From Candidatus Asgardarchaeum abyssi (GTDB lineage: Archaea > Asgardarchaeota > Asgardarchaeia > Asgardarchaeales > Asgardarchaeaceae): DNA of 38,229 bases. Location: positions 1 to 38,229 of the forward strand of contig JBECUL010000017.1 in NCBI GenBank assembly GCA_040225955.1. Reading direction: 5' to 3'. Made by a program: the position numbers and the translations under genes. The notes under the pieces were generated by a model. That model ran no database searches. It saw only the letters and a program-made list of their open reading frames with translations, and was not told the origin of the DNA. Shown here piece by piece: positions 1 through 31,166 of this stretch. Positions within the stretch are counted from its first letter, which is position 1, and every line of letters starts with the position of its first letter.

Positions 1-354
1 ATGCAATAAGACACCTGTCTTAGCGTCTCTTTTAGCAAGAATCAATAAAATAGCTACACCAACGCGTCCTACTAGAATATACCCATCGTCTCCATGAACA
101 AATACTCCTTCCAAATTCCCCTTCTCCATGTCATTAACTGTATCATTCCCTAGCTTATAAAGAACTGCTGCAGCAGCAGCAATATTAGGAATCTCACTCT
201 CTTCTGCAATGTCTCTTGAAAGAGTGTGTGATATAATAATACCATCTTCAGTAGCCAACACCAACCCATCTATTTGAGCATCTGGAAACATCCTATTTGC
301 TTCTTCCATTATACGTAGGAGTTCCTTATAGAGTGGGTTGTCGGCCATACTCAT
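1..354 (-). CDS. Roadblock/LC7 (MglB-like) domain protein, 3' end runs off the window
   Basis: Not in ORF track. Manual translation from ATG at 354: MSMADNPLYKELLRIMEEANRMFPDAQIDGLVLATEDGIIISHTLSRDIAEESEIPNIAAAAAVLYKLGNDTVNDMEKGNLEGVFVHGDDGYILVGRVGVAILLILAKRDAKTGVLLH, open to position 1. Shows the roadblock pattern (GxVLxTxDGxxI, IAAxxAxL, LExVxVxGxxGxI, AKxGxL). Confidence 0.88.
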   Translation of the reverse strand, partial: MSMADNPLYKELLRIMEEANRMFPDAQIDGLVLATEDGIIISHTLSRDIAEESEIPNIAAAAAVLYKLGNDTVNDMEKGNLEGVFVHGDDGYILVGRVGVAILLILAKRDAKTGVLLH

Positions 355-2386: not shown

Positions 2387-2797
2387 TTAACCAATCACCC
2401 GAATTTGTGTCGCTAAAGCTTGGCCAGGAAGCCCTTTACTAAAACGAACCAAAAGATGACCTGCTCTGCCGTGTAGTTTAATCACTTTGCCAATAATCCT
2501 TTTAGAGATATTTTTCGGATGAACCCACTCAATAGTAGATCCAATTAGATATGACTTATGTGATAGTGGGATTTCAGGAAAGTCTACAGCAGCCCTACGT
2601 GTATCAGAACGATAAAAGTTTAGGATTACGCCGGTTTTACCAATAAACTTTGGCTTAATAAATACAGATTTTATAACTTTCTTTTTTTTAGGGCGAACTT
2701 GTCTTGCTTTTCGTCTTCCTTTTACCTTGTTTCTTTTTTCCAGCTGGTTTTTCTTTTACATCGTTTGTGGTATCACTTTTTTCTTCTTTCGAGGCAT
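2387..2797 (-). pseudogene. rpl35ae: Ribosomal protein eL33 (L35Ae) with a basic N-terminal extension, interrupted by an in-frame TAA (pseudogene, recoding or assembly error)
   Basis: Not in ORF track. ATG at 2797 gives MPRKKKKVIPQTM*KKNQLEKRNKVKGRRKARQVRPKKKKVIKSVFIKPKFIGKTGVILNFYRSDTRRAAVDFPEIPLSHKSYLIGSTIEWVHPKNISKRIIGKVIKLHGRAGHLLVRFSKGLPGQALATQIRVIG*. The C-terminal GKVIKLHG..G....RF.KGLPGQAL is the archaeal L35Ae signature. Internal TAA at 2758-2756. Confidence 0.85.
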
Positions 2798-2901: not shown

Positions 2902-3612
2902 TTAAAGTCTTCTTTTGCTACCCGTCTTATTAACAGTCTCTTTCTCATATTTAAAGAATGGTGAAAGGAAAGATGGTCCCTCTAAAACTTCTTCAAAAAC
3001 AGCTTGCAAATATTCCAGTCCTGCATCTATTTCCCTTTTTGATTGTTTGATGGCTTCTGTATCAATATACGGTTCCACTCTCCAAACCGTAAAATAATTA
3101 GTTAGCTCTATAGGTGTTGGTTCTGTATTTATAATAGCATCTCTTATTGCTGTTTTTACCTCAAAGCTTTTCTCATACATGTTAATAATACGTCTTATCT
3201 CTTTAATTATGACTCTAACTATATCTACTACTTTATCCCCAATCATACTGATGTTTGAATATTTATCAAGTAATGATTCAACAGCATCTAAATGAGCCTT
3301 AATCTCACTTGTCATATTAAGAAGGTGTGAAAATATGTTATATGCCTTATCGAGAGAAGGGACAAGCTGTTCATAAAGAATCATATAAAGCTTAGCTTTT
3401 AATTTCTCTGAAAGATCAGGAAACTCTTCTAGAACTCCTAACTCCTTCTCTGAGTACAAAAGTTGAAAACCTATGTCGGTAATGACTCTAACAGTACCAA
3501 TAGACTCTCTTACAGTCTCATTCCATTTCTCAGTAAATGTATCTAACTTTTCAACAGCTAGTTCCAAACTTCGTATGATCTCTCTAAGTACTTCTCGTTC
3601 AACATTTTTCAT
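2902..3612 (-). CDS. All-helical protein, putative C1orf109(AIRIM)/CINP-like family
   Basis: 236 aa, helical/coiled-coil character. Motifs EKWNETVRES, GVLEEFPDLSEKLKAK, INMYEKSFEVK and WRVEPYID resemble, in order and spacing, human C1orf109 (LWQSALRD, ALRAFPDLKERLRRK, ERHYRKSYLKR) and the CINP C-terminal WxxQPYI, as recalled. Confidence 0.6.
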   Translation of the reverse strand: MKNVEREVLREIIRSLELAVEKLDTFTEKWNETVRESIGTVRVITDIGFQLLYSEKELGVLEEFPDLSEKLKAKLYMILYEQLVPSLDKAYNIFSHLLNMTSEIKAHLDAVESLLDKYSNISMIGDKVVDIVRVIIKEIRRIINMYEKSFEVKTAIRDAIINTEPTPIELTNYFTVWRVEPYIDTEAIKQSKREIDAGLEYLQAVFEEVLEGPSFLSPFFKYEKETVNKTGSKRRL

Positions 3613-3632: not shown

Positions 3633-3696
3633 AGGCTCGGCTACCCCAGGTGAGAATCATTGTCTCACTCAAGGGAGGTGACTTTCATCATCGCCT
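3633..3696 (-). ncRNA. Box C/D methylation-guide sRNA (predicted 23S rRNA targets near the peptidyl-transferase region)
   Basis: Minus strand: AGGCG-ATGATGA(C box)-AAGTCACCTCCC-TTGA(D')-GTGAGACA-ATGATT(C'-like)-CTCACCTGGGGTAG-CCGA(D variant)-GCCT. Terminal stem AGGC/GCCT; GC-rich island within an AT-rich intergenic space. Confidence 0.75.
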
Positions 3697-5921: not shown

Positions 5922-6317
5922 TTATTCTGTTTCCGATAGCCTTTTGCGTATAGCTTTTGTAAGATCTATCATTTCTTCTCCTCTACGTTTAATAAATATC
6001 TTGCTTTCTTCACCAGTAATTTTTCGCTCTATTAATTTAACTTCTAGTCTTGAGAGAACATGGTCAATATATCCAAATCTGAATGCATTTACTATTACGA
6101 TTTTAATTTTATCTGCAAGTGATGGGGAACTCTTCTCAAGGCTTTTAAGATAGCTATAAGCTTCATCATCTAATAGGTTTCGAATTATCGCCTCAACAGC
6201 TCTACGGATATCTTGCTTTTCAGCCTTCTTTTTTTCTTCTTCTCTGGTTTTCAATCTTTCCATGAGTTCTCTTATCTTTTTCTGCCGTATAGCCTCAAGC
6301 TCATCCATACTGAACAC
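5922..6317 (-). CDS. PDCD5/TFAR19-like double-stranded DNA-binding protein (divergent; probable start ATG 6308)
   Basis: MDELEAIRQKKIRELMERL...IIRNLLDDEAYSYL...P.LA..I...KIFIKRR follows the PDCD5 pattern (DELEEIRRRKL; ILxxEARERL; KIxIxR). Confidence 0.7.
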   Translation of the reverse strand: MFSMDELEAIRQKKIRELMERLKTREEEKKKAEKQDIRRAVEAIIRNLLDDEAYSYLKSLEKSSPSLADKIKIVIVNAFRFGYIDHVLSRLEVKLIERKITGEESKIFIKRRGEEMIDLTKAIRKRLSETE

Positions 6318-15626: not shown

Positions 15627-17972
15627 TCATCTTTTTCTTTTTGCACTCGATTCCCTTTTCTTATATAGATGGTTAGCTATGATAAATATCTTTTCAGCTA
15701 TTTTTTTGCCAATACCAGGAACCTTCGTCAACTCATCGATGGACGCATTAAAAATACTTCTTATAGAACCAAAGTGTGATAATAAAGCGCGAGATCGAGC
15801 TAAATCAACCCCAGGAATACTAGCAATAACAAATTCTAAGACGTCATCCAACAAAAGAGGTTTCTCACCCGCTCTAATTACGGGTTTTCGTTTATGTTCT
15901 ATCTGCTCTCTTTTAGCAATTATATATATTATCTCAGCAGTTTCTTTAGCATTTTCACTCCAAATTATTGGAACATTGAAATCTACAGCTACAGCAGCAA
16001 TAGCTGAGTAAATAGATTTTGATGTAACATTTCTATGTGAAAAAAGATCGTACCCTTCAATTATTAAAATTGGCTTCCTGTAGTTTTCCTTTAACTTTTT
16101 AATCTGTGGGAATAATCTATTATCAATTATAGAGTTAACAAAATCAGATGATGTTTTACGCTCGATAATTACATCATCCGAAAGAATATAATCACCTACA
16201 TCTAAGCGTTTTATAGTAATTTTGCAATCATAATCAGACAGGTATCGAACGACTTCAGATAGGAACTCACGAGAGTCAATTATTATTTCTATTTCGTTAT
16301 CGGTTTCACTTTTTTCCGTTTTCATTATTTTCATATCTGGTTTTTCTTTAATAATATATTCTTCTATGAGACCTTGAGATGCTTCAAACGCTACCTTACT
16401 TCGCTCAATTTCTTTCACACTTAGCTGCTTTTTAAGCTTCTTTAATATTTCTTTCATTTTCTTCTCCTTTCTAACGGATGCCCAATAATAGCCTTCATCG
16501 CGTGTTCCTTTTGCAATTAATACTATGACCGTCCCTTCCCTCTTTCGTCCAGTCCTACCCATTCTTTGTATTCGTCTGATAGCGCTTGGTACTGCATCAT
16601 AAAAGATTACTAAATCGCATTCGGCGATATCTAATCCCTCTTCAGCGACACTCGTAGCAACTAGGATATTATAAATACCGAGAGAGAAGTTTTCTAGTAT
16701 TTCAAGCTGCTGTTTTTGAGTCAAACCTTTAACATCAGACCTTTTCTGCTGACCGACAAACCACATAGCATTTAAACCATGTTCTCTTAACTTTTCAGAA
16801 ATGTACTTTGCAGTCACTCTATAATGTGTAAATACTAAAATACGCATATTCTCATTTCTTGAAAGATACTCATCAAGAATTTTTATTAAATGCTCCAGTT
16901 TGGGATGCTCGATTCCTTTCTGAATTAAATAATTAGCTAACATTTTCAATTCCATAAATTCATTTGATGAAACAAATTCTTTCAAAGTCTTAGGCGCTCC
17001 TTGTCTTGTAGACTTTTCTTCCAGTTTCTTTAAGTGTGCATAAAATGATGTTACACCTTGGGTCTCAATAAGTTCAAGAAGATGTGATATCCGAATAGCA
17101 TTAGTAACCATTGCTAAAAGCCTATAGTATTCATTAGATATAGTATTAGTTTTTTCATGAATCAACTTCTGGATTTTTTCTTTAACTAAGATGAGGTCTT
17201 TCCTTTTAATTTTTCTAATATCAGTAGTAGATATCAGATCGTATTCCTTTAAAGAACTAATAATATCTTTAAGCAGAGTATTAAGGATTTGGATTATTCT
17301 AGTGAACTCTTCTGGTAGATCTATGTGATGCCATTTTAGGATTCTTTTTTGAATATATGGTGCTACGTCGGGGCTGTGCTCGTCCCTAACTTCTACTTGT
17401 TGTATGAATAGATTTTTCTTAATTTCCTCTATTTTCTCTAATTCGGATCCAGGGCTTGCTGTTATTCCTAAGATTAAAGGATATTTAGACGTACTCATAT
17501 ATTTCTTAGCTATGAAGACATATGGATAATCACCAACAGCCCTATGGCATTCATCAAATATCATCAGAGATACATTCTCTAAGGTATATCTTTTTGCAAT
17601 AATGTCATTTTGTAATACTTGTGGTGTCATAATTGCAACCTTAGATTGGTGCCATTTTTTCTCTCGTTTGGATGGACTATCCGCTCCTGTGAACACATTA
17701 ATAGTACCAGGAATTAAGTCCAATATCTCCTCAAATACTTTTTTATGTTGCTCAACAAGAGGACGTGTTGGAGCCAGAAATATTACTTTTGAATCAGGAT
17801 AACGATGCAATCTATTAGCAGTTACTAGTGCTGCAATTATTGTTTTACCAAGTCCAGTAGGGAGCACTACTAATGTATTCTTTCTGGAACTTATAGCAGC
17901 TATTACCTCTTGATATAATCTATACTCAACGGCATCTTTCTTGATTAAAGGATGCTCAAAATATTTTGTCAT
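15627..17972 (-). CDS. hef: Hef: FANCM/Mph1-like DExH helicase fused to an XPF/ERCC4 nuclease and HhH domains
   Basis: LPTGLGKT, FDECHRA, TASPG, ATSVAEEGLDI, QRMGRTGR; nuclease GDYILS...IERKTSSD; C-terminal VPGIGKKIA. Confidence 0.96.
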   Translation of the reverse strand: MTKYFEHPLIKKDAVEYRLYQEVIAAISSRKNTLVVLPTGLGKTIIAALVTANRLHRYPDSKVIFLAPTRPLVEQHKKVFEEILDLIPGTINVFTGADSPSKREKKWHQSKVAIMTPQVLQNDIIAKRYTLENVSLMIFDECHRAVGDYPYVFIAKKYMSTSKYPLILGITASPGSELEKIEEIKKNLFIQQVEVRDEHSPDVAPYIQKRILKWHHIDLPEEFTRIIQILNTLLKDIISSLKEYDLISTTDIRKIKRKDLILVKEKIQKLIHEKTNTISNEYYRLLAMVTNAIRISHLLELIETQGVTSFYAHLKKLEEKSTRQGAPKTLKEFVSSNEFMELKMLANYLIQKGIEHPKLEHLIKILDEYLSRNENMRILVFTHYRVTAKYISEKLREHGLNAMWFVGQQKRSDVKGLTQKQQLEILENFSLGIYNILVATSVAEEGLDIAECDLVIFYDAVPSAIRRIQRMGRTGRKREGTVIVLIAKGTRDEGYYWASVRKEKKMKEILKKLKKQLSVKEIERSKVAFEASQGLIEEYIIKEKPDMKIMKTEKSETDNEIEIIIDSREFLSEVVRYLSDYDCKITIKRLDVGDYILSDDVIIERKTSSDFVNSIIDNRLFPQIKKLKENYRKPILIIEGYDLFSHRNVTSKSIYSAIAAVAVDFNVPIIWSENAKETAEIIYIIAKREQIEHKRKPVIRAGEKPLLLDDVLEFVIASIPGVDLARSRALLSHFGSIRSIFNASIDELTKVPGIGKKIAEKIFIIANHLYKKRESSAKRKR

Positions 17973-18214: not shown

Positions 18215-19108
18215 ATGGAGCAACTTGAGGTCCATGATATTGAGTTTTTAACACCAAAAACAGAAGATGAATTACTTGATATTCTTGATAGATATAAGGA
18301 AAAGGCAAAGGTGCTTGCTGGAGGCTCAGACTTACTTCTTCTTATAAGAAGAAACCTCATTGCAAGGCCTAATTATATAGTTAATATAATGGAGATACCA
18401 TCACTGAAGTATATCAATGAAGATGAAGAAACAGTAAGAATTGGCGCAACAGTAACGCATACCGAGGCTATTGAAAATCAAATCATCAATAGGGAGTTCC
18501 CCTCACTTGTAAAAGCCTTAAAAACGATAGGATCTACTCAAATAAGAAACTGGGCTACTATCGCTGGGAACCTTGCTAATGCTTCACCGGCTGCAGATTC
18601 AGCACCCATTCTTATAGCCTTGGATGCCAAGCTAAAAATAAAATCGGCTAAGGATGAGAAAATAATTCCAGTTGAGGAACTCTTTGTTGGAGTGAAAAAA
18701 ACGATTCTAAAACCAAACGAGATAATTAAGGAAATAATTATTCCTAAAAAGAGAAAGAATTTCGCAGCAGATTTTATTAAACTTGGTAAACGTAATGCTC
18801 TTGTCTTAGCGGTTGTTTCAGCAGCTGCTGGAATAGAAATGTCTGAAGACGGAAAGATAAAGAATATACGAATTGCGTTAGGTTCTGTAGCTCCTACTCC
18901 CTTAAGAGCCAAAAAAGCAGAGGATGTGCTTAGGGGTAAAGAGCCAAAAATGGATTTAATAGACAAATGTGCTAAAGTGGCAAAAGAAGAAAGCAAGCCC
19001 ATTTCAGATGTTAGAGCATCAGCAGAGTATAGAAGAGAAATGGTTTATGTTTTGACAAAAAGAGTCATACTTAATGCTTTAAAAGAGTTAGGGGTTGATG
19101 TTGAATGA
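18215..19108 (+). CDS. Xanthine-dehydrogenase-family FAD-binding (medium, CoxM/CutM-like) subunit
   Basis: LAGGSDL, RIGATVT, QIRNWATIAGNLANASPAADS, PISDVRASAEYR. Confidence 0.93.
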   Translation: MEQLEVHDIEFLTPKTEDELLDILDRYKEKAKVLAGGSDLLLLIRRNLIARPNYIVNIMEIPSLKYINEDEETVRIGATVTHTEAIENQIINREFPSLVKALKTIGSTQIRNWATIAGNLANASPAADSAPILIALDAKLKIKSAKDEKIIPVEELFVGVKKTILKPNEIIKEIIIPKKRKNFAADFIKLGKRNALVLAVVSAAAGIEMSEDGKIKNIRIALGSVAPTPLRAKKAEDVLRGKEPKMDLIDKCAKVAKEESKPISDVRASAEYRREMVYVLTKRVILNALKELGVDVE

Positions 19109-19581
19109 AAAAGCAACTCCTTAGAATGAGAGTTAATGGGAGAGATGTTGAAGTTTATGTAAGACCTGATGCCAGGCTTATAGATGTTCTTAGAGATTTG
19201 GGGTATCTTAGTGTTAAAGAGGGGTGCGGTACTGGTGAATGTGGCGCATGTACAGTTATCATGGACGGAAAAACTGTTCTTTCTTGTATTACGTTTGCAC
19301 TACAAGCAAATGGGAAGGAGATTATTACAGTTGAGGGGTTAGCTAAAAATGGAAAGCTTCATCCAGTTCAAGAAGCTTTTATAGAGAAAGGTGCAGTCCA
19401 ATGCGGATATTGTATTCCAGGTTTCATTATGAGCACGGTATATTTACTTAATGAGAATCCTAATCCGACATATGAAGATATTCTGGACGCACTAGAGGGA
19501 AATTTATGTCGTTGTACTGGATATGTGAAAATAATCGAAGCTGTTAAAGAAGCTGCTTCACGACTAAAAAAGGAGGCGTAG
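19105..19581 (+). CDS. 2x[2Fe-2S] small subunit (CoxS/CutS-like), copy 1
   Basis: GCGTGECGACTV..SC; QCGYCIPG..GNLCRCTGY. Confidence 0.95.
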   Translation: MKKQLLRMRVNGRDVEVYVRPDARLIDVLRDLGYLSVKEGCGTGECGACTVIMDGKTVLSCITFALQANGKEIITVEGLAKNGKLHPVQEAFIEKGAVQCGYCIPGFIMSTVYLLNENPNPTYEDILDALEGNLCRCTGYVKIIEAVKEAASRLKKEA

Positions 19582-19582
19582 T

Positions 19583-21898
19583 ATGTCGAAAGTTATTGTA
19601 AAAGAAAAAGAGAGAGTCTTAAATGTTGTTGGTCATCCTGTAAATAGAGTAGATGCCCTAGCAAAAGTTACGGGGACTGCAAAGTTTACAGCTGATTACT
19701 ATGTTCCAAACATGCTTTATGCCGTAGTTAAACATGCAGACATTCCACACGGATACATAAAGAAGATCGACACTTCAGAAGCTGAGAAAGTTGAAGGAGT
19801 GGTGAAAATAGCTACTGGAAAAGATATACCTGGTGTAAAAAAAGTTGGATTCCCAATTCCTGATGAGGAAGTTATTGTTCAAGAAAAGGTTAGATATATT
19901 GGTGATGTAGTAGCGATTGTTGCAGCAGAAACTTTAGAAGCAGCAAGAAAAGCTGCAGAAAAAATAAAAGTTGAATATGATCCACTCCCAGTTGTTTTGG
20001 ATCCAGAAGAAGCTATGAAAGAAGATGCCCCGAAAATTCATGACTCCGGCAATATAATAACACATTTTAAGATCAGAAAGGGAGATGTTGAAAAGGGCTT
20101 TAAAGAGGCCGATTATGTTATAGAACGAGAGTATAGAACTCAATTTATTGAACATTCATATTTAGAACCAGTAGCAGCTCTCGCAATTCCGGTTGGAGAT
20201 ATGATTGAAATCTATGGAACAGTTCAGAATCCACATAATGCAAGAAGAATTACCTCACTTACATTAGGAATACCAATGCATAAAGTGAGAGTGATTCAAC
20301 CAGCACTTGGTGGTTCCTTCGGTGGTAAAGATGATACAGCAAATTTTGTTGCTGCACGTGCTGCATTGATGGCTAAACTAACTGGACGACCAGTTAAGAT
20401 GGTTTATACCCGAGAACAAGACATGAGAGAAAGTTACAAGAGACATCCATATATTATGCGTTATAAAGTTGGTTTTACAAAGGATGGTAGAATAACTGCT
20501 ATGGAGATAAAAGTTATCACAAATGCTGGGGCTTATTCGTCGTCGTCTCCATTAGTCTTATATAGATCTACCGTTCAATGTACTGGAACATATGAAGTAC
20601 CAAACATAAAAGGAGACTTCTATACAGTATATACAAATACTGTATTCTCTGGAGCTATGCGAGGTTTTGGAGCGCCCCAAATAAATTTCGCAGTTGAATC
20701 ACTTATGGATGAAATTGCAGAAATACTGGGAATGGATCCAGTTGAAATTAGATTGAAAAATGCCTATAAGGAAGGATCAGTAACACCTACTGGGCAAGTA
20801 TTAAAAGGACATGTAGTTAGCATTAGGGATATAATAAAGAAACTTGCAGAAATTGCGGATTGGAAGAAAAAGCGAGAGGAATACAGTAAAGATAAGGGAG
20901 ACGTCCGTAGAGGTATTGGGATATCTTGTGCATTTAGAGGAGTTAGCTTAGGTGCAGAAGGAGCAGATTATGCTGGTGCCATAGTAGAAGTTTTCGAGGA
21001 TGGACATATATCGATTACAAGTGGGATATCAGAAATGGGGCAAGGTGCAAAAACTGTTATGTCTCAAACCGCTGCAGAGGTCCTTGGTGTTCCTATAGAA
21101 TACGTCACGTTTGTTGGTCCAGATACCTCATTTTCTCCAGATAGTGGACCCACTGTTGCATCAAGAGGGACACTAATGGGATGCGGAGCGGTAAAAGTCG
21201 CTGCTGAGGTTGTAAAGGAAAGAATGGCTAAATATGCAGCTAAACTATTTAACACAACATACGAGAACATAGTATTTGAGAATGGTTATGTTTACTCGAA
21301 AAAGAATCCAGAGAACAAAATATCATTTCCAGAGCTAGCTAAAAAATGCTATCTTGATAGAGTAAATCTTAGCGCGGTAGGGTGGTTTCTAGCACCAGAG
21401 ATACATTGGGATCCAGAGACTGGTGAAGGTGAACCATATTTTACATATACATATTATGCAGATATAGCGGAAGTTGAGGTTAATGTAAAAACTGGTGATG
21501 TAAAAGTCAAAAAAGTATACGCAATGCATGATCCAGGAAAGGTTGTAAATCCAAAAACAGCAAAAGGACAAGTCTATGGAGGAGTTGCCATGGGTATTGG
21601 ATACGCATTAAAGGAAGAGTATAAGATAGATGGGAAAGGATATCCAATTACATTAAACTTTGATAAGTATCAAATTGTAAGAGCTCATGAAATGCCTGAT
21701 GTTGAAGTATATTTCCTAGAAAATCCAGATCCTTCTGGTCCCTTTGGAGCTAAAAGTCTTGGAGAGCCTGCCTTTGATACGGTTGCACCTGCAATAACAA
21801 ATGCTATTGCACATGCGACAGGTGTTAGAGTAAGAAGTTTACCTGCGACAAAAGATAAAATCTTAAAATTACTTAAAGAGAAGGAGGAGAGAAGATGA
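19583..21898 (+). CDS. Xanthine-oxidase-family molybdopterin-binding large subunit, copy 1
   Basis: GGSFGGK, GAMRGFGAPQ, EMGQG, ASRG, GQVYGG, GAKSLGE (catalytic Glu). Confidence 0.94.
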   Translation: MSKVIVKEKERVLNVVGHPVNRVDALAKVTGTAKFTADYYVPNMLYAVVKHADIPHGYIKKIDTSEAEKVEGVVKIATGKDIPGVKKVGFPIPDEEVIVQEKVRYIGDVVAIVAAETLEAARKAAEKIKVEYDPLPVVLDPEEAMKEDAPKIHDSGNIITHFKIRKGDVEKGFKEADYVIEREYRTQFIEHSYLEPVAALAIPVGDMIEIYGTVQNPHNARRITSLTLGIPMHKVRVIQPALGGSFGGKDDTANFVAARAALMAKLTGRPVKMVYTREQDMRESYKRHPYIMRYKVGFTKDGRITAMEIKVITNAGAYSSSSPLVLYRSTVQCTGTYEVPNIKGDFYTVYTNTVFSGAMRGFGAPQINFAVESLMDEIAEILGMDPVEIRLKNAYKEGSVTPTGQVLKGHVVSIRDIIKKLAEIADWKKKREEYSKDKGDVRRGIGISCAFRGVSLGAEGADYAGAIVEVFEDGHISITSGISEMGQGAKTVMSQTAAEVLGVPIEYVTFVGPDTSFSPDSGPTVASRGTLMGCGAVKVAAEVVKERMAKYAAKLFNTTYENIVFENGYVYSKKNPENKISFPELAKKCYLDRVNLSAVGWFLAPEIHWDPETGEGEPYFTYTYYADIAEVEVNVKTGDVKVKKVYAMHDPGKVVNPKTAKGQVYGGVAMGIGYALKEEYKIDGKGYPITLNFDKYQIVRAHEMPDVEVYFLENPDPSGPFGAKSLGEPAFDTVAPAITNAIAHATGVRVRSLPATKDKILKLLKEKEERR
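20008..20055 (+). repeat. 48-bp exact direct repeat, copy A (within large subunit 1)
   Basis: AGAAGCTATGAAAGAAGATGCCCCGAAAATTCATGACTCCGGCAATAT is identical to 22796-22843. Confidence 0.9.
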
Positions 21899-22374
21899 AA
21901 CTCACGATTTTTGTAAATTCGAAAAAGTATGAATTTGAGGAAATAGACCCAAATATGAGATTAGTGGATCTCCTTAGAGATAAACTTGGAATTACGAGTG
22001 TAAAAATAGGTTGCGAGAATGGAACTTGTGGAGTGTGTACAGTACTAGTTGATGGTGTTCCTGTGAGGTCTTGCATAACCCCCGTATCAAAAGTGAACGG
22101 GAAAAAAATTTTAACAGTTGAGGGATTAGGAACCCCCGAGAACCCACATCCACTTCAAAAGTTTTTTATTGAGTACGATGCTGTTCAATGTGGATTTTGT
22201 ACACCTGCAATGATTCTTTATGGATATTATATTGTAAAGAAAAATCCTGATGTAACGAAGGAAGAAATAAAGAAAATGATTTCTCCTGTCTTATGTAGAT
22301 GTACTGGGTATATTCCAATTATTGAGGCCATAAAAGCTTATGCTGATTTTGTGAAAAGGAGGCGTGAAAAATGA
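21895..22374 (+). CDS. 2x[2Fe-2S] small subunit, copy 2
   Basis: GCENGTCGVCTV..SC; QCGFCTP..LCRCTGY. Confidence 0.95.
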   Translation: MKLTIFVNSKKYEFEEIDPNMRLVDLLRDKLGITSVKIGCENGTCGVCTVLVDGVPVRSCITPVSKVNGKKILTVEGLGTPENPHPLQKFFIEYDAVQCGFCTPAMILYGYYIVKKNPDVTKEEIKKMISPVLCRCTGYIPIIEAIKAYADFVKRRREK

Positions 22375-24683
22375 GCATTGGTATTCAAATGGAGAAAACT
22401 GAGATGCTTACTATTGTTGGAAAACCAGTAAAGAGAATAGATGCCTATGAAAAAGTGACAGGGTTAGCGAGGTATGTTAGAGATTTAAGGTTTCAGAATA
22501 TGCTATATGGTTTTGTATTTAGGAGCACGGAGCCTCATGCAAAAATTAAGAAATTGGATGTTAAGGAAGCGAAAAAGGTTCCCGGAGTATATGCAGTTGT
22601 GACAGCAGATGACATCCCTGGAGAAAATATCGTGCCAATAATATTAAACGACCGCCCACTTTTAGCAAAAGATAAAGTTAGGTATATAGGCGAAGCTATT
22701 GCACTTATTGCGGCGGAAACGAAGGAAATTGCAAAAATCGCGGCTAGTAAAATAAAAGTTGAATATGAACCGCTTCCAGCAATTTTTGATGCCTTAGAAG
22801 CTATGAAAGAAGATGCCCCGAAAATTCATGACTCCGGCAATATCTTTACTCACTATAAGATAAGAAAAGGTGATGTAGAAAAGGCATTTAAAGAGGCAGA
22901 TTTAATAATTGAGAACGTCTATCAAACTAACTATCAGGAACATGTATATATCGAGCCACAAGGAGCCTTGGCTGTTCCAGAGGGTGATGGCATAACTGTT
23001 TATTCCAGTACGCAATGTCCATATTATGTGCAGAAAGCAGTAGCAAATGTTCTTGGACTGCCAAGAAGCAAAGTTAGAATAATAGTTACAACAGTTGGCG
23101 GAGGTTTTGGAGGAAAAGAAGATGTACCTTCATGGGTATCTGCGGAAGCTGCTGTTCTGGCTTGGGTTACTAAAAGGCCCGTACTGTTAGAGTATGATAG
23201 AGAGGAGGATATGGAAACTAGCAGTAAGAGACATCCAGGGTATGTAAAATATAAATCAGCTTTTAAGAAAGATGGAACATTAATTGGAATAAAGGTTGAA
23301 TACGTAATTGACGCAGGAGCATATTCAACATTATCCCCACCAGTAATATTTAGAGGCACAATCCATGCTCCAGGTCCTTATAAAATTCCTAATGTTTGGG
23401 TTGATGGATACGCAGTTGCTACAAATAAAGTACCAACAGGTGCATTTAGGGGTTTCGGTTCACCACAAGTCATCTTTGCATATGAACAACAAATCGACGA
23501 AGCTGCGTATAAATTGGGGTTAGACCCTGCTGAGATTAGGTTAAAAAATGCTCTCGACTTAGGAGACGAAACTGCCACGGGGCAAATTCTTAGATATAGC
23601 GTTGGAGTGAAGGAAACTATAAGAAAAGCCATAGAAGTGTCGGACTGGTATAGAAAACGAAAAGAGTATTCATTAATGGAAGGCACTAAACGTCGAGGAA
23701 TTGGAATGAGTACAATAATATATGGGGTTGGTCTGGGAGCTGCAGGAAAGATACTAGAACGATCTGGAGCTACCGTTCAAATCACAACAGATGGTAGTGT
23801 CATTGTCTTAGTAGGAACATCAGAAATGGGTCAGGGAATGAGAACAGTGCTAGCACAAATAGCAGCAGAGGCTCTTGGAGTTACAATCGATAAAATATAT
23901 TTACCAGAAGTAGACACACTTGCTGTGCCAGATAGTGGTCCTACCGTAGCATCAAGAGCTACTGTTATGTCTGGTAATGCCATAATTGATGCTGCTGAGA
24001 AGATAAAAGAAAACCTATTAAAGGTAGCATCTGAAGAGTTAAATGTACCTCCAGAGAGATTAGACATTAAAGATAATGTTATCTTTGATACCGATAATCC
24101 AAATGTGAAGGTGGAATTTGATAAAATAGTAGAAATTGCCTATGCAAAGGGAGTAAAGCTAGCAGCTGTTGGTTGGTATCACGCTCCTGATACGACGTTT
24201 AATGAACAAGGCCTTGGTGATGCATACTATGTTTATTCCTATGCAACTCATGTGGCAGAGGTTGAAGTTGACCTTGAAACTGGAAAAGTTAATGTAATAG
24301 ATTACTATGCCGTTCATGACTCAGGCAAAATTATAAATCCAGTAACTGCTGAGGGACAAGTTCAAGGAGGAGTAGCCCAGGGGATAGGCTATGCGTTATT
24401 AGAGGATTTAGTTGTTGAAAACGGAAAAATTATGAATCCTAATCTTACCGATTATCTCATACCATCTATCAAGGATGTGCCTAATATTAAGGTCTATTTC
24501 GTTGAAGCAGAGTATCCCGAAGGGCCATTTGGTGCAAAGGGTCTTGGAGAACCTTGCTTAATGCCAGTTGCAGCAGCAATAGCAAATGCTATTAGACATG
24601 CAACTGGAGTTAGAATAAAGAAATTACCAATGACAGCAGAAAAGGTCTTTTTTGCACTTAAGGAGCATGGAGTAAGAGGATGA
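22371..24683 (+). CDS. Xanthine-oxidase-family molybdopterin-binding large subunit, copy 2
   Basis: GGGFGGK, GAFRGFGSPQ, EMGQG, ASRA, GQVQGG, GAKGLGE. Confidence 0.94.
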   Translation: MSIGIQMEKTEMLTIVGKPVKRIDAYEKVTGLARYVRDLRFQNMLYGFVFRSTEPHAKIKKLDVKEAKKVPGVYAVVTADDIPGENIVPIILNDRPLLAKDKVRYIGEAIALIAAETKEIAKIAASKIKVEYEPLPAIFDALEAMKEDAPKIHDSGNIFTHYKIRKGDVEKAFKEADLIIENVYQTNYQEHVYIEPQGALAVPEGDGITVYSSTQCPYYVQKAVANVLGLPRSKVRIIVTTVGGGFGGKEDVPSWVSAEAAVLAWVTKRPVLLEYDREEDMETSSKRHPGYVKYKSAFKKDGTLIGIKVEYVIDAGAYSTLSPPVIFRGTIHAPGPYKIPNVWVDGYAVATNKVPTGAFRGFGSPQVIFAYEQQIDEAAYKLGLDPAEIRLKNALDLGDETATGQILRYSVGVKETIRKAIEVSDWYRKRKEYSLMEGTKRRGIGMSTIIYGVGLGAAGKILERSGATVQITTDGSVIVLVGTSEMGQGMRTVLAQIAAEALGVTIDKIYLPEVDTLAVPDSGPTVASRATVMSGNAIIDAAEKIKENLLKVASEELNVPPERLDIKDNVIFDTDNPNVKVEFDKIVEIAYAKGVKLAAVGWYHAPDTTFNEQGLGDAYYVYSYATHVAEVEVDLETGKVNVIDYYAVHDSGKIINPVTAEGQVQGGVAQGIGYALLEDLVVENGKIMNPNLTDYLIPSIKDVPNIKVYFVEAEYPEGPFGAKGLGEPCLMPVAAAIANAIRHATGVRIKKLPMTAEKVFFALKEHGVRG
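22796..22843 (+). repeat. 48-bp exact direct repeat, copy B (within large subunit 2)
   Basis: Identical to 20008-20055. Confidence 0.9.
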
Positions 24684-25285
24684 TAATTGCCATAATTTTA
24701 GCAGCTGGTAAGTCAGAAAGAATGGGAAGACCGAAACTCATCTTACCAATAATAAATGGCAAAAGCATAATAGAACATGTAATTGAGTGTGTTAAATCTT
24801 CAAAGGTTGATGAAGTATTAGTTATTCTTGGTCATGAACCACACAACATTATTCCATATGTTCAGAGAACCAATACTCCCTTTATTGTCAATTTCTTTTA
24901 TGAATATGGCATGACTAGCTCTTTTAAGAGAGGTATCATGGAAATCGCAGATAGAGCGGATGCAGCACTGTTAGTGTTAGGGGATCAACCGCTAATATCT
25001 ACAGAGCTAATTGATCAAATCATTGACATTTATGAACATACATCAGCGCTTATAGTTTCGCCTAAATATAAAGGAAAAAAGGGACACCCCGTTTTATTTG
25101 ATAAAAAAGTGTTTACAGACATTATCAACTTGCCATGGTATGGCATTATTAGGACAGTAGTACATAAATATTCTTTACAACATGTGACCTTTGATTGGGA
25201 AAAGTCAGTTATTATTGATGTTGATACGCCTGAAGATTATAAGAAGTTAGTAGAGATCATTAAAAGATCACATAAAAAGAATTAA
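24680..25285 (+). CDS. mocA: Molybdenum cofactor cytidylyltransferase (MocA-like)
   Basis: ILAAGKSERMGRPKL, GMTSS, LGDQP, GHPVLF, DVDTPEDY; in an operon with MCD-dependent hydroxylase genes. Confidence 0.87.
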   Translation: MIIAIILAAGKSERMGRPKLILPIINGKSIIEHVIECVKSSKVDEVLVILGHEPHNIIPYVQRTNTPFIVNFFYEYGMTSSFKRGIMEIADRADAALLVLGDQPLISTELIDQIIDIYEHTSALIVSPKYKGKKGHPVLFDKKVFTDIINLPWYGIIRTVVHKYSLQHVTFDWEKSVIIDVDTPEDYKKLVEIIKRSHKKN

Positions 25286-27356: not shown

Positions 27357-30300
27357 TTAAAACTCAACAGCTCTAGTTTCAGGTTTTAGAATTTCTGCTT
27401 TTTCTCTATATAATATATTCACTATTTCATTATAGGTTTCTTGTAATATCTGTTGATAATCCGCCTCATTTGTTTCAACTTTATCCATTTTTTCATACAG
27501 TACTTTTGTACGTTCGTCAGAAACCAACTTATAGAAGTTATCTGTTAAATACTTTGCAACCGATATCCCCTTTGGTGTAGGTTTTATTCTTCCATTAACC
27601 TCTTGTATATATTTCCTGTCAAATAGCTTCTTCACAATTATAGCATATGTACTAGGTCTTCCGATGCCTTTTTCCTTCATCTCACGTATGATCTCAGCTT
27701 GAGTATATAATTCGTAGGGTGATCCTATCCATTTACGTATATTGGTTACAGGATATGCTGCCCCTTCTTTTAATTCGACAATTCGTTTAGGTAAATGTAA
27801 ACTATAAACTTTTGTAAACCCTTCAGACCCTTCTATTACTTTTATAATCCCTTCTACATCTAAACTTCTATCAGCAATTTTTACTCTTGCTCTTTGATGA
27901 ATTACTTTAGCTGCTTTCATTTGGCTAGCAATAAATCTTCTAAAAATGAGACCATAGAGTTGGAGATGCTGAGCAGTTAGTCTTATATTTAGTACACCTT
28001 CACGTATCAACTCAGCCAGCTGTGACTGATCCAAAGGCTTAACAGGCCTTATACACTCATGAGCCCCACCAACACCCCAAGACCTAGGGGTAAACTCATT
28101 TTCAGAAAACTTGTCTGTAATATAATCCTTAGCTACTTTTATACCTTGACTACTTACTCGGGTACTATCCGTACGATGATATGTTATAAGACCGCTTTCA
28201 AAGAGATCCTGAGCCAGCTTCATAGTTTGAGCTGCAGAGATTTTCATTATAGTTGTTGCATCATAAAGCATTGAATCTGTTGTATATGGCGGAAGTGGCT
28301 TTATTTCTCTTTCTTCTTTTTCGACTTTTTCTACAATTATTTTTTCGTTTTTAAGTTTTTCAAGAAGTATTTCAGCATCTCTATTTTCCTTTACATCTGG
28401 AAAATCAATAATTATGTCGAAACCCTCAGAGAATATTCTAAAGTAGAAATGAAGAGTTTCTCTCCATTTAAGATATCTATCAATTATCCATCTAAGCACT
28501 GCAGATTGAACTCGGCCAGCAGAGAGATTTACATCATTGAATCTTTTCCAAAGCATTTTACTTAACTCAAAGCCTATCCATCTATCTTCTATTCTTCTTA
28601 CAAGTTGAGCTTTTACTAAGCTCATGTCTATTGAGCGGGATTCCTTCAATCCACGATCTATTGCAAGCTTACTAACTTCATGAAATTCCATCCTACGAAT
28701 ATCATTCGTGAATAGAAATACAACATTCTTTGTATCCCAAGCGATCTTTTCGCCTTCAACATCAGGATCCGATGCCAGAAAAACTACATCAACTTCCTTA
28801 GTTAGTTCTTGTAATCGTCGCACAACATCTCTAGCGTCAATTATGTCTGTAGAACCACATTTTGGGCATTTCTTCTCTGAAAGAACAAACTGCGTTCCAC
28901 ATTTTTTGCATCTTTTAATTGTATCATAAACTGGTATATAATAGCCATCGTGCTTTTCAACTCCACAGAGAAGATCTTTACCTTCAACTGTTAGATCAAA
29001 CATATGCCCCTTTGTAGCAACAATGTTCAGAACATAATCACCGCTTGTTACTTCATAGACTAGACCTTCTTCAAACCGTCTAATAGTTGGGCGTCCAAAA
29101 AACATAGATATAGTTTTAGCCTTATTTGGTGATTCAACTATAAGGACAGCAGACTTTATAGGATCTACAAATTCGGCTTTTTCCTTTCCTTCGTATATAG
29201 ATCTTACTTTATATCTATCCTCATCTATTTTATGAATAATTTCATCTAAGTTTACTTCTTCTATTGGAACCAAATCACAATGCTCATAACGCCAAATTAA
29301 CTGCCTTCTTAGTCCATTGATGAGATATTTATCAGAAGTGAGTATGATAGATAACCCTGTAGTTACACCCCCTGGATAGAGCCGACTAGTTCTACCAGAA
29401 GCTTGAATATATGAGTCTATATCGGGATATATTATGGTGAAAGATCCTGTTTCATCTAATAGTAATCTGACATACGGATATTGCTCCACTTTTGAAAACA
29501 CGTCAGGTTGCTTTAATAAGGAGATGCAATATCTCGCATTTTTTAGAATCTCTTCTTTCAATCGCTTTAGATAACCCTCAACCTTTTCCTCATTTAATAT
29601 TGCACGTGTTAACAATTTGAAAGTCTGCGGTTCTAATCTTCTTAATTTATCAGAAAGAGCTTTTCTTCGCTTATCCAATTCAGCATTCCCAGTAGCATCA
29701 GAAATTATACCCATTATAGCAAGAAGAGATATAGGGGATATTCTTTCACTCGCTAAGGAAATAATATGCCTTGGGATATCATAGAATATGGCATATCTTA
29801 CTCTTGCAGGCAGATCCAAACCACGGACTAACAGACCATGGTGAAAAGCAACCCCTACGAGAATATCTATTTCGCCATTGGCAAAAGCTTCAATAAGTCC
29901 TTTTTTCTTCTCAGCATGAAAAGCTTCAGCTTTAATGCCATGAGAACGTAGCAATTCAGCAATCTGTTCAGTTTTCTCTACACCTAAGTCTTTAGGTACA
30001 AAAACTAATCCACCAGTTCCAAGTCTCTTAATATGCTCTAAAAGAAGCTCATCAAATTTTGAAGGATCGGATAATATATAGACATCATATATTTTACGAA
30101 TCCCCTCGCCAACACCACCTACTTGAAAACCTAGGAGCTCCTTGAATAGTCTAATTCTTTTACCTTTTGGTCTAGCAGTAGCAGACGCTATAACGATCTG
30201 CCCTATTTTATTCTTCTTTTTCCACCTACTAATTTCGTTTTCTAATTCTTCTATTTTGTTCTTGATACTATTTATTACACTCTCATCTTTAATGTTCTGT

Positions 30301-31166
30301 GATAATATTAATCGTGATAAGCGTAATTTGTTATCTATCAATTCAATAGTTTTAGTAACAATTTCTTCAGTAAAGCCAATAAGAACCAACAGTCTATCTA
30401 TATTCTTTGAAGACTTCATAACAGCGTCTACATCATCAACGAAAACTAAATCAAATTTTATATTTTTCAGAATTTCATAATTTTTTGCGAGAAATTGAGC
30501 AGTGGTAATTAATATATCAAAATCCTTATTCTTTATTAGATTTATAGTTTCATCTCTCTCCTTCTTTGGAAGCCCATGATGATATGAAATAATTCTTAGC
30601 TTACCAAGCTCTTTCTTATTCTTCTCAACTATATCAAGCATATTTTTAGTGACTTGAATAACAAGAGGAGTTGTAGGAAGAATTATGTATACTCGTTTCT
30701 TTTTCTTTTTTGCAAGATAAAGTGAGATAACGTATCCGAAAAAGGTTTTTCCCACACCTGTTGGAGCTGATATTGAAAAACTATAGCCTAAGAGAATTCT
30801 TTTCGCCCAGGTTCTCTGAGCGCTCCATAAGCGCTTCCCAGTAACTTCTTCAAAAAACTTACAGACTTCATCTGTCTTGAAAAATAGATTAATATAGTCA
30901 TCATACTTTTTTAGTTTTCCTTCCTTTCTCAACAGATTAATAATAAGTTTTTTACCCTCTATTGTTGGAGTATATCCTGGAGGGATTATTGGTAAGCAAT
31001 TTCTACAAGGCAAACCTAGAGATAATCTATCATCATATATATCTCCACCACAATTAGGGCACATTCCAACAAACTTAGCAATGGGCCGTTCCATGATTTT
31101 TCCCCTTTTTACTTTCACTTTTAAAATAATTTCTATTTTTAATAAAATTTGCCTATTTTTTGACAT
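27357..31166 (-). CDS. rgy: Reverse gyrase (probable start ATG 31094)
   Basis: N-terminal Zn finger CPNCGG...PCRNC, APTGVGKT, DDVD, QASGRTSRL, Toprim IVESPNKA, second Zn finger CKKC..CPKC, catalytic ITYHRTDS, GIGRPSTYA. Confidence 0.98.
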   Translation of the reverse strand: MSKNRQILLKIEIILKVKVKRGKIMERPIAKFVGMCPNCGGDIYDDRLSLGLPCRNCLPIIPPGYTPTIEGKKLIINLLRKEGKLKKYDDYINLFFKTDEVCKFFEEVTGKRLWSAQRTWAKRILLGYSFSISAPTGVGKTFFGYVISLYLAKKKKKRVYIILPTTPLVIQVTKNMLDIVEKNKKELGKLRIISYHHGLPKKERDETINLIKNKDFDILITTAQFLAKNYEILKNIKFDLVFVDDVDAVMKSSKNIDRLLVLIGFTEEIVTKTIELIDNKLRLSRLILSQNIKDESVINSIKNKIEELENEISRWKKKNKIGQIVIASATARPKGKRIRLFKELLGFQVGGVGEGIRKIYDVYILSDPSKFDELLLEHIKRLGTGGLVFVPKDLGVEKTEQIAELLRSHGIKAEAFHAEKKKGLIEAFANGEIDILVGVAFHHGLLVRGLDLPARVRYAIFYDIPRHIISLASERISPISLLAIMGIISDATGNAELDKRRKALSDKLRRLEPQTFKLLTRAILNEEKVEGYLKRLKEEILKNARYCISLLKQPDVFSKVEQYPYVRLLLDETGSFTIIYPDIDSYIQASGRTSRLYPGGVTTGLSIILTSDKYLINGLRRQLIWRYEHCDLVPIEEVNLDEIIHKIDEDRYKVRSIYEGKEKAEFVDPIKSAVLIVESPNKAKTISMFFGRPTIRRFEEGLVYEVTSGDYVLNIVATKGHMFDLTVEGKDLLCGVEKHDGYYIPVYDTIKRCKKCGTQFVLSEKKCPKCGSTDIIDARDVVRRLQELTKEVDVVFLASDPDVEGEKIAWDTKNVVFLFTNDIRRMEFHEVSKLAIDRGLKESRSIDMSLVKAQLVRRIEDRWIGFELSKMLWKRFNDVNLSAGRVQSAVLRWIIDRYLKWRETLHFYFRIFSEGFDIIIDFPDVKENRDAEILLEKLKNEKIIVEKVEKEEREIKPLPPYTTDSMLYDATTIMKISAAQTMKLAQDLFESGLITYHRTDSTRVSSQGIKVAKDYITDKFSENEFTPRSWGVGGAHECIRPVKPLDQSQLAELIREGVLNIRLTAQHLQLYGLIFRRFIASQMKAAKVIHQRARVKIADRSLDVEGIIKVIEGSEGFTKVYSLHLPKRIVELKEGAAYPVTNIRKWIGSPYELYTQAEIIREMKEKGIGRPSTYAIIVKKLFDRKYIQEVNGRIKPTPKGISVAKYLTDNFYKLVSDERTKVLYEKMDKVETNEADYQQILQETYNEIVNILYREKAEILKPETRAVEF

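Follow-up and report, generated by a model that had tools for sequence, protein, structure and literature searches.

A single-copy Asgard archaeal homologue of the 55LCC adaptors CINP and C1orf109, and its possible role as an ancestral Cdc48 adaptor

The human AAA+ unfoldase SPATA5/SPATA5L1 (Afg2) is a double-ring enzyme that carries the proteins C1orf109 (AIRIM) and CINP on its N-domains (PMC12019325). Two T-shaped C1orf109-CINP heterodimers join the SPATA5/SPATA5L1 N-domains to make an N-terminal ring, and the helical bundles of the adaptors form the inner wall of that ring, a funnel for the substrate; within each heterodimer, the loop between helices alpha1 and alpha2 of C1orf109 binds CINP through a hydrophobic contact (PMC12019325). 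In plants, OPNR and OAP1, homologous to C1orf109 and CINP respectively, occur in a complex with CIP111 and CDC48D (PMC12332008). The substrate of the eukaryotic machine is Rlp24/RSL24D1 (PMC12332008). A gene in the window, by which we mean the whole 38,229-nucleotide stretch of Candidatus Asgardarchaeum abyssi DNA that was analysed, raises the question of whether an archaeon possesses a relative of these two adaptors, whether such a relative could stand for the ancestor from which both arose, and whether it could serve a Cdc48-type enzyme. A sequence-only reading of the locus had proposed all three.

The interval from 2902 to 3612 proved to be open on the minus strand only, ORF analysis finding stops throughout the plus strand. 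The encoded protein, P0001, carries W30, DIGFQL from residue 46, GVLEEFPDLSEKLKAK at residues 59-74, INMYEKSFEVK at 143-153, and WRVEPYID at 177-184, the last beginning with W177. An AlphaFold2 model built with 12 homologues is all-helical (pLDDT 85.5, pTM 0.79), comprising four long helices (residues 2-54, 67-121, 125-162 and 185-211), two short ones (59-63 and 167-179) and a disordered tail (214-236). From this model, P0001 is predicted to be a five-helix bundle of about 210 residues followed by the tail. The open reading frame, the motif positions and the model thus bear out the initial description of a 236-residue all-helical protein with every quoted motif in place. The gene and the segments of its product that matter for what follows are these.

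2902..3612, minus strand: coding sequence of the CINP/C1orf109-like protein P0001, 236 aa, stop codon included (ORF and translation)
3451..3609, minus strand: helix alpha1, residues 2-54, W30 (codon 3523-3525) invariant and S37 nearly so (AlphaFold2 model and alignment A3)
3391..3450, minus strand: residues 55-74 ('LGVLEEFPDLSEKLKAK'), covering the alpha1-alpha2 loop and the first part of alpha2, a C1orf109-like signature (aligned to AIRIM 'LRAFPDLKERLRRK')
3154..3189, minus strand: 'I-x-MYE-x-x-x-x-K' block in helix alpha3, residues 142-153, M145 and E147 invariant (alignment A3)
3061..3102, minus strand: 'LTNYFTVWRVEPYI' block, residues 171-184, a CINP-like signature, W177 and E180 at least 90% conserved (alignment A3; aligned to CINP 'LSYLSMWLHQPYVE')
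2905..2973, minus strand: basic C-terminal tail, residues 214-236, disordered and poorly conserved (pLDDT <50; no alignment among homologues)

As a single sequence, P0001 had the Pfam family PF15011 (CA109-like, C1orf109-like) among its best Pfam matches, at E 0.022 and 15.1 bits, below the curated gathering cut-off of 27 bits, and had no match among PDB sequences; a five-sequence profile of its sub-family returned from the PDB a weak TRF2 match and noise, with CINP and AIRIM absent. Homologues in Asgardarchaeia-type metagenome-assembled genomes share 98%, 76%, 42% and 41% identity with P0001. PF15011 is the best Pfam match of the 76% identical P0003 (E 8e-4), and it scores 26.6 bits in the 41% identical P0005, over profile positions 13-157 of 161. 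An exhaustive phmmer search over 1.84 billion representative proteins recovered 11 relatives, with members at E 1e-19 to 5.6e-5, and five of these relatives exceed the PF15011 cut-off (P0007, 54.5 bits; P0008, 52.1; P0011, 50.9; P0012, 50.4; P0014, 46.7). Among the 22 members of the alignment, 18 match PF15011, and no other family recurs. When compared by hhalign, the P0001 sub-family (A1) and the Hodarchaeales family (A6) aligned over 179 columns with 95.6% probability and E 1.1e-8. Because P0001 itself falls short of the cut-off while its relatives pass, we class it as a remote homologue, outside the Pfam-defined membership.

Profiles of the archaeal family led to the same two human proteins. 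Searched against all PDB sequences, a 12-sequence profile had as its seven best matches, counted as distinct sequences, four CINP (E 1.6e-5) and three AIRIM constructs (E 0.014), with noise thereafter. A profile of 22 sequences reached CINP at E 5.1e-6 and AIRIM at E 2.1e-3, the next unrelated match lying at 0.018. These alignments to the human proteins are near full-length and keep the invariant residues in register. The predicted fold agrees: the seven best chains found by Foldseek with the P0001 model were all CINP or C1orf109 (probability 1.00, TM 0.65-0.70, rmsd near 4 A over some 205 columns), and were followed by generic bundles at rmsd >20 A. Human CINP (8cih, 9gwj_B, 8rhn_C, 9lgo_J) has, like P0001, five helices in about 200 residues and superposes at TM 0.68; C1orf109 (9gwj_A, 8rhn_A, 9lgo_H) and plant OPNR have the same fold, at TM 0.70. 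The HMMER and Foldseek searches that the sequence-only reading had called for therefore placed CINP and C1orf109 at the top of both the profile and the structure matches. VIA-align likewise put C1orf109 at the top of its list (Z 15.2), aligning 191 of 202 residues. Designed helical bundles, however, reached Z 15.1, so the fold Z by itself is not decisive, and we do not count it as evidence of homology. A structure search of the ESM Atlas returned matches below TM 0.5 only. In a language-model feature search, eukaryotic PF15011 clusters made up 19 of the 30 nearest named clusters, with 214 of 256 features in common.

Could the resemblance be no more than a chance or compositional likeness between unrelated bundles of long helices? 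The single-sequence scores are weak, and the high structural Z of unrelated designed proteins shows how readily helical bundles superpose. Yet the scores climb with the size of the profile, the alignments run the full length with invariant residues in register, and Pfam, the profile searches of the PDB, Foldseek and the language-model features all converge on the same two proteins, which belong to one complex. We therefore regard a chance likeness as extremely improbable. Given the sequence profiles, the Pfam scores of its relatives, the modelled fold and the features shared in the language-model search, the archaeal protein is very probably homologous to both CINP and C1orf109/AIRIM, as had been proposed.

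W30, M145 and E147 are invariant among the 22 archaeal homologues, of which at least 90% also keep S37, L75, L87, F94, I142, W177 and E180. In the HMMER alignments, W30 stands in register with the tryptophan of 'ILKWETL' in human CINP and of 'GLWQSA' in AIRIM, and conserved archaeal blocks are matched by AIRIM 'LRAFPDLKERLRRK' and 'RHYRKSYLKRK' and by CINP 'EMYRKELLLKRT' and 'YLSMWLHQPYVE'. The 'I-x-MYE' block (residues 142-153) pairs with 'EMYRKELLLK' of CINP and with the same 'RHYRKSYLKRK' of AIRIM. The human motifs quoted in the sequence-only reading are therefore accurate. The expectation that the archaeal motifs would themselves be conserved held in part: the WxxEPY block is kept, whereas in the FPDL block the phenylalanine and the flanking leucine and glycine are moderately conserved and the proline and aspartate vary.

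Each human protein shares a different part of this pattern. CINP has in common with the archaeal family the N-terminal tryptophan, a 'MY-x-KE-x-x-x-K' block and a 'YL-x-x-W-x-x-PY' block, at an identity of about 14%, but it lacks the 'LG-x-L-x-x-F' loop between alpha1 and alpha2. C1orf109 shares the aligned tryptophan, a 'FPDL-x-ERL' loop block and a 'Y-x-K' block, but the HMMER alignment with AIRIM ends before the C-terminal W/PY block. The likeness to C1orf109 is strongest in the N-terminal half of the archaeal family, at the alpha1-alpha2 loop block, and the likeness to CINP in the C-terminal half, at the W/PY block. The 'LG-x-L-x-x-F' loop is the most conserved loop of the family and corresponds to the dimerisation loop of C1orf109, which suggests a conserved protein-protein contact. 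For E147 of CINP, which contacts SPATA5, the alignment with the archaeal protein is of low confidence and the residue is unconserved, and we drew no inference from it.

In the searches made here, the family was seen in Asgard archaea only. A profile search of genomes returned a match in 131 of 400 Asgard genomes, almost all with exactly one. A single copy is present in the source genome (93% complete). Almost every genome of Hodarchaeales, of Thorarchaeia-type families and of some further families carries the gene: in f9 (21/22), which is Hodarchaeales/Heimdallarchaeia by source names, in f10 (2/2), f12 (17/19) and f28 (5/5), and in f29, f30 and f31 (80/86); other members come from Kariarchaeaceae, Thorarchaeota and Asgardarchaeia. 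Within the limits of profile sensitivity and genome completeness, it was undetected in f20 (0/135), f6 (0/31), f8 (0/12) and others. All named matches among the 1.84 billion representative proteins and 5.8 billion clusters were Asgard, as were all 92 proteins that the 22-sequence profile retrieved through a word index at E <= 10.

The PF15011 model, which derives from eukaryotic sequences, landed independently on the same loci as the archaeal profile. It scored above its cut-off in f9, f10, f28 and f29, and below it in f12 and f31; Asgard scores rose to 54.7 bits, and 21 of the 22 genomes of the Hodarchaeales family f9 were included. Against the source genome it had no match at E 1e-3, and against the 14 control genomes it gave none above cut-off and a sub-threshold match in one ring only. 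In a maximum-likelihood tree of 42 members, the sequences followed the families of their organisms, with 14 label changes where 12 would be the minimum, and P0001 stood in a long-branched Asgardarchaeia clade beside Thorarchaeia-type sequences. This clade is a divergent Asgardarchaeia-class branch missed by Pfam. In f28 (G305-G308), four of the five matches are listed with one in-frame TAA or TAG within the matched span, and these proteins have an insertion of about 30 residues between helices.

The central discovery, that Asgard archaea have CINP homologues, has been published before. Koestlbacher et al. reported such proteins ('CINPL') from five major clades of Asgard archaea, with none in other prokaryotes, and found eukaryotic CINP to be monophyletic and sister to Hodarchaeales with 99% UFBoot support (bioRxiv 10.1101/2024.07.03.601958; PMC12962969). 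Their CINPL and P0001 belong to the same family, with full-length matches, a distribution seen so far in Asgard archaea only and a CINP-like structure; P0001 differs in coming from the long-branched Asgardarchaeia clade undetected by Pfam. Since these homologues appeared in print in 2024/2026 and a precomputed PF15011 match is on record for most members from Hodarchaeales, P0001 is not the unrecognised eukaryotic signature protein that it had been taken for. Koestlbacher et al. treat CINP only, leaving C1orf109, the single-copy state and an AAA+ partner unmentioned (PMC12962969), and our literature search found no other paper naming both Asgard archaea and C1orf109. What is new here is the divergent Asgardarchaeia-class member, the explicit link to C1orf109 and the evidence for a single-copy state.

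That state bears on how the archaeal gene is related to the eukaryotic pair. Human 55LCC and plant OPENER contain two distinct paralogues as a heterodimer, so that CINP pairs with a paralogue of its own, whereas the source genome, like nearly all positive Asgard genomes, has one gene. Structural papers state of C1orf109 and CINP only that their five-helix secondary structures are similar (PMC12019325), and we found no statement calling them paralogues. The single copy, the match of the archaeal profiles to both human proteins, and the division of the two signals between the N- and C-terminal halves are, as sequence comparisons, consistent with a pre-duplication origin, in which the pair CINP/C1orf109 would derive from such an archaeal gene by duplication. 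Two results call for care: of the two human proteins, CINP gave the better match every time, and a profile of Hodarchaeales sequences alone reached CINP in the PDB and missed AIRIM.

The same two findings, the former amounting to 29 against 21 bits, favour the alternative of orthology to CINP only, in which the likeness of the archaeal protein to C1orf109 would reflect an older and remoter relation between CINP and C1orf109, C1orf109 would have a separate history, and the protein would be no mosaic ancestor of the two. The monophyly of eukaryotic CINP as sister to Hodarchaeales, reported by Koestlbacher et al., points the same way. Such a history does not sit easily with the scores that a C1orf109 model of eukaryotic derivation gives to Asgard proteins, up to the maximum noted above and in all but one genome of f9. 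Nor does it fit an alpha1-alpha2 loop block that is like that of C1orf109 and unlike that of CINP, or the absence of a second paralogue from the Asgard genomes searched. We consider orthology to CINP only rather unlikely, and place a pre-duplication, co-orthologous relation of the archaeal gene to both eukaryotic proteins at about an even chance.

If the archaeal protein is a relative of both adaptors, a single protein would perform an ancestral version of the job shared in eukaryotes by C1orf109 and CINP. It would form a homo-oligomer, bind the ring of N-domains of an AAA+ unfoldase of the Cdc48/VAT type, and select or guide the substrates of that enzyme. The source genome has three full-length Cdc48/VAT paralogues with canonical N-domains. 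By PDB matches, all three are closest to VAT and then to p97, with Afg2/SPATA5 weaker and over D1-D2 only. A search among them for an Afg2-like Cdc48 paralogue by best PDB match found none, all three being VAT/p97-like. No AAA+ gene or recurrent neighbour lay beside the family gene in any Asgard lineage examined, and these results point to no particular partner. The self-association prediction for P0001 (two copies, residues 1-213, alignment A3) gave no answer at a score of 0.02, and we read nothing from it in either direction. AIRIM functions in the release of RSL24D1/Rlp24 from pre-60S particles; in the source genome, eL24 is a single short gene with a 65-residue frame and there is no Rlp24-like paralogue, so this eukaryotic substrate is absent here.

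The main rival to the Cdc48-adaptor mechanism is a role apart from any AAA+ enzyme, in which the archaeal homologue would act as a small helical scaffold elsewhere, for example in replication or genome maintenance, where CINP was first given a role, and the link to Afg2 would be a eukaryotic innovation. Such a role would account for the want of an AAA+ neighbour in every lineage examined and for a source genome without either an Afg2-like Cdc48 paralogue or Rlp24, and at one Heimdall-type locus the gene is divergent from a family-B DNA polymerase gene. This adjacency carries little weight, however, because neighbourhoods vary between families. Against a role outside AAA+ biology stand the three Cdc48/VAT enzymes of the source genome, with their canonical N-domains, and the fact that both homologues are stable subunits of Cdc48-family ATPase complexes in animals and in plants, which argues that the partnership of adaptor and ATPase was present in the last eukaryotic common ancestor. 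We consider an AAA+-independent scaffold rather unlikely. By analogy with the eukaryotic complexes, a Cdc48-adaptor role in the archaeon is a tentative proposal, to which we would give somewhat less than an even chance.

Taken as a whole, the best explanation is that P0001 is a divergent member of the Asgard CINP-like family, homologous to both human proteins, and would represent an ancestral Cdc48 adaptor from which the eukaryotic pair would have arisen by duplication; we hold this to be slightly favoured by the evidence. The strongest version, in which the Asgard gene would be the direct pre-duplication ancestor of both 55LCC adaptors and its product would, as a homo-oligomer, already cap the N-domain ring of a Cdc48/VAT enzyme in archaea, appears unlikely. 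Were it true, the adaptor-funnel architecture of the Afg2/SPATA5 60S-maturation machine would predate eukaryotes, and the adaptor complex would have become heteromeric later, once adaptor and ATPase had both duplicated. A preprint on 55LCC describes CINP and C1ORF109 as late eumetazoan additions and the complex as eumetazoan-specific (bioRxiv 10.1101/2025.11.07.687187); from the plant OPENER complex and the Asgard proteins it is evident that the adaptor goes back much further. A single-copy archaeal relative of both subunits offers a simple system in which to study the original adaptor function, and it bears on whether Cdc48-family unfoldases had helical N-ring adaptors before eukaryotes.

The surroundings of the gene differ between lineages. 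In the window its neighbours are a TrmB regulator, MetRS, an eL33-like ORF and a geranylgeranyl reductase, an arrangement common to the closest relatives only; in other families the neighbours are unrelated (SAM synthetase, HypF, RtcA, PGM, PolB and unknown proteins). At all seven of the Hodarchaeales-type loci examined, the CINP-like gene lies between two conserved large proteins of about 730 and 529 residues. These flanking proteins, for instance L047:3821-6010:+ and L046:1362-2948:+, have no Pfam match at E 1e-4, and could be lineage-specific partners or reflect plain synteny.

Directly upstream of the P0001 gene and on the same strand, a 64-nucleotide element (window 3633-3696, minus strand) resembles a C/D-box sRNA. 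It has a terminal stem (aggc...gcct), GATGATGA as its C box, ATGATTC as a C'-like and CCGA as a D-like box. An Rfam search with this element gave no match, and a search for guide targets yielded chance 10-11-mers only, no rRNA genes being recognisable in the assembly. The 76% identical relative (L032) retains the stem, the boxes and both guide regions, and L034 does not.

Directly downstream (window 2390-2755, minus strand) lies the only eL33 (L35Ae) gene of the genome, which matches PF01247 with 29 bits and is missing from this position in the locus of the closest relative. A neighbourhood for large-subunit biogenesis is therefore not conserved, and we give it no weight as a clue to function. 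The open frame of the eL33 gene, 122 codons long, is without an in-frame ATG, GTG or TTG start; before it come A-rich runs and a 13-codon ORF (MPRKKKKVI...) that echoes an in-frame 'RPKKKKVI'. These features suggest that translation begins at a non-canonical start, or that a frameshift or sequencing indel is involved.

Elsewhere in the window, eukaryote-flavoured genes encode a Roadblock/LC7-domain protein (1-354, minus strand), a PDCD5-like dsDNA_bind protein (5922-6317, minus) and a 781-residue Hef-type helicase-ERCC4 nuclease (15627-17972, minus). Two very large ORFs, of 1269 and 935 residues, occupy 27357-31166 and 32800-35607, both on the minus strand. On the plus strand, positions 18215-25285 hold a molybdenum hydroxylase cluster of the xanthine or CO dehydrogenase type, in which the small (2Fe-2S) and large (MoCo-binding, 770-771 aa) subunits are tandem-duplicated, with an FAD subunit before them and a MobA-like nucleotidyltransferase after.
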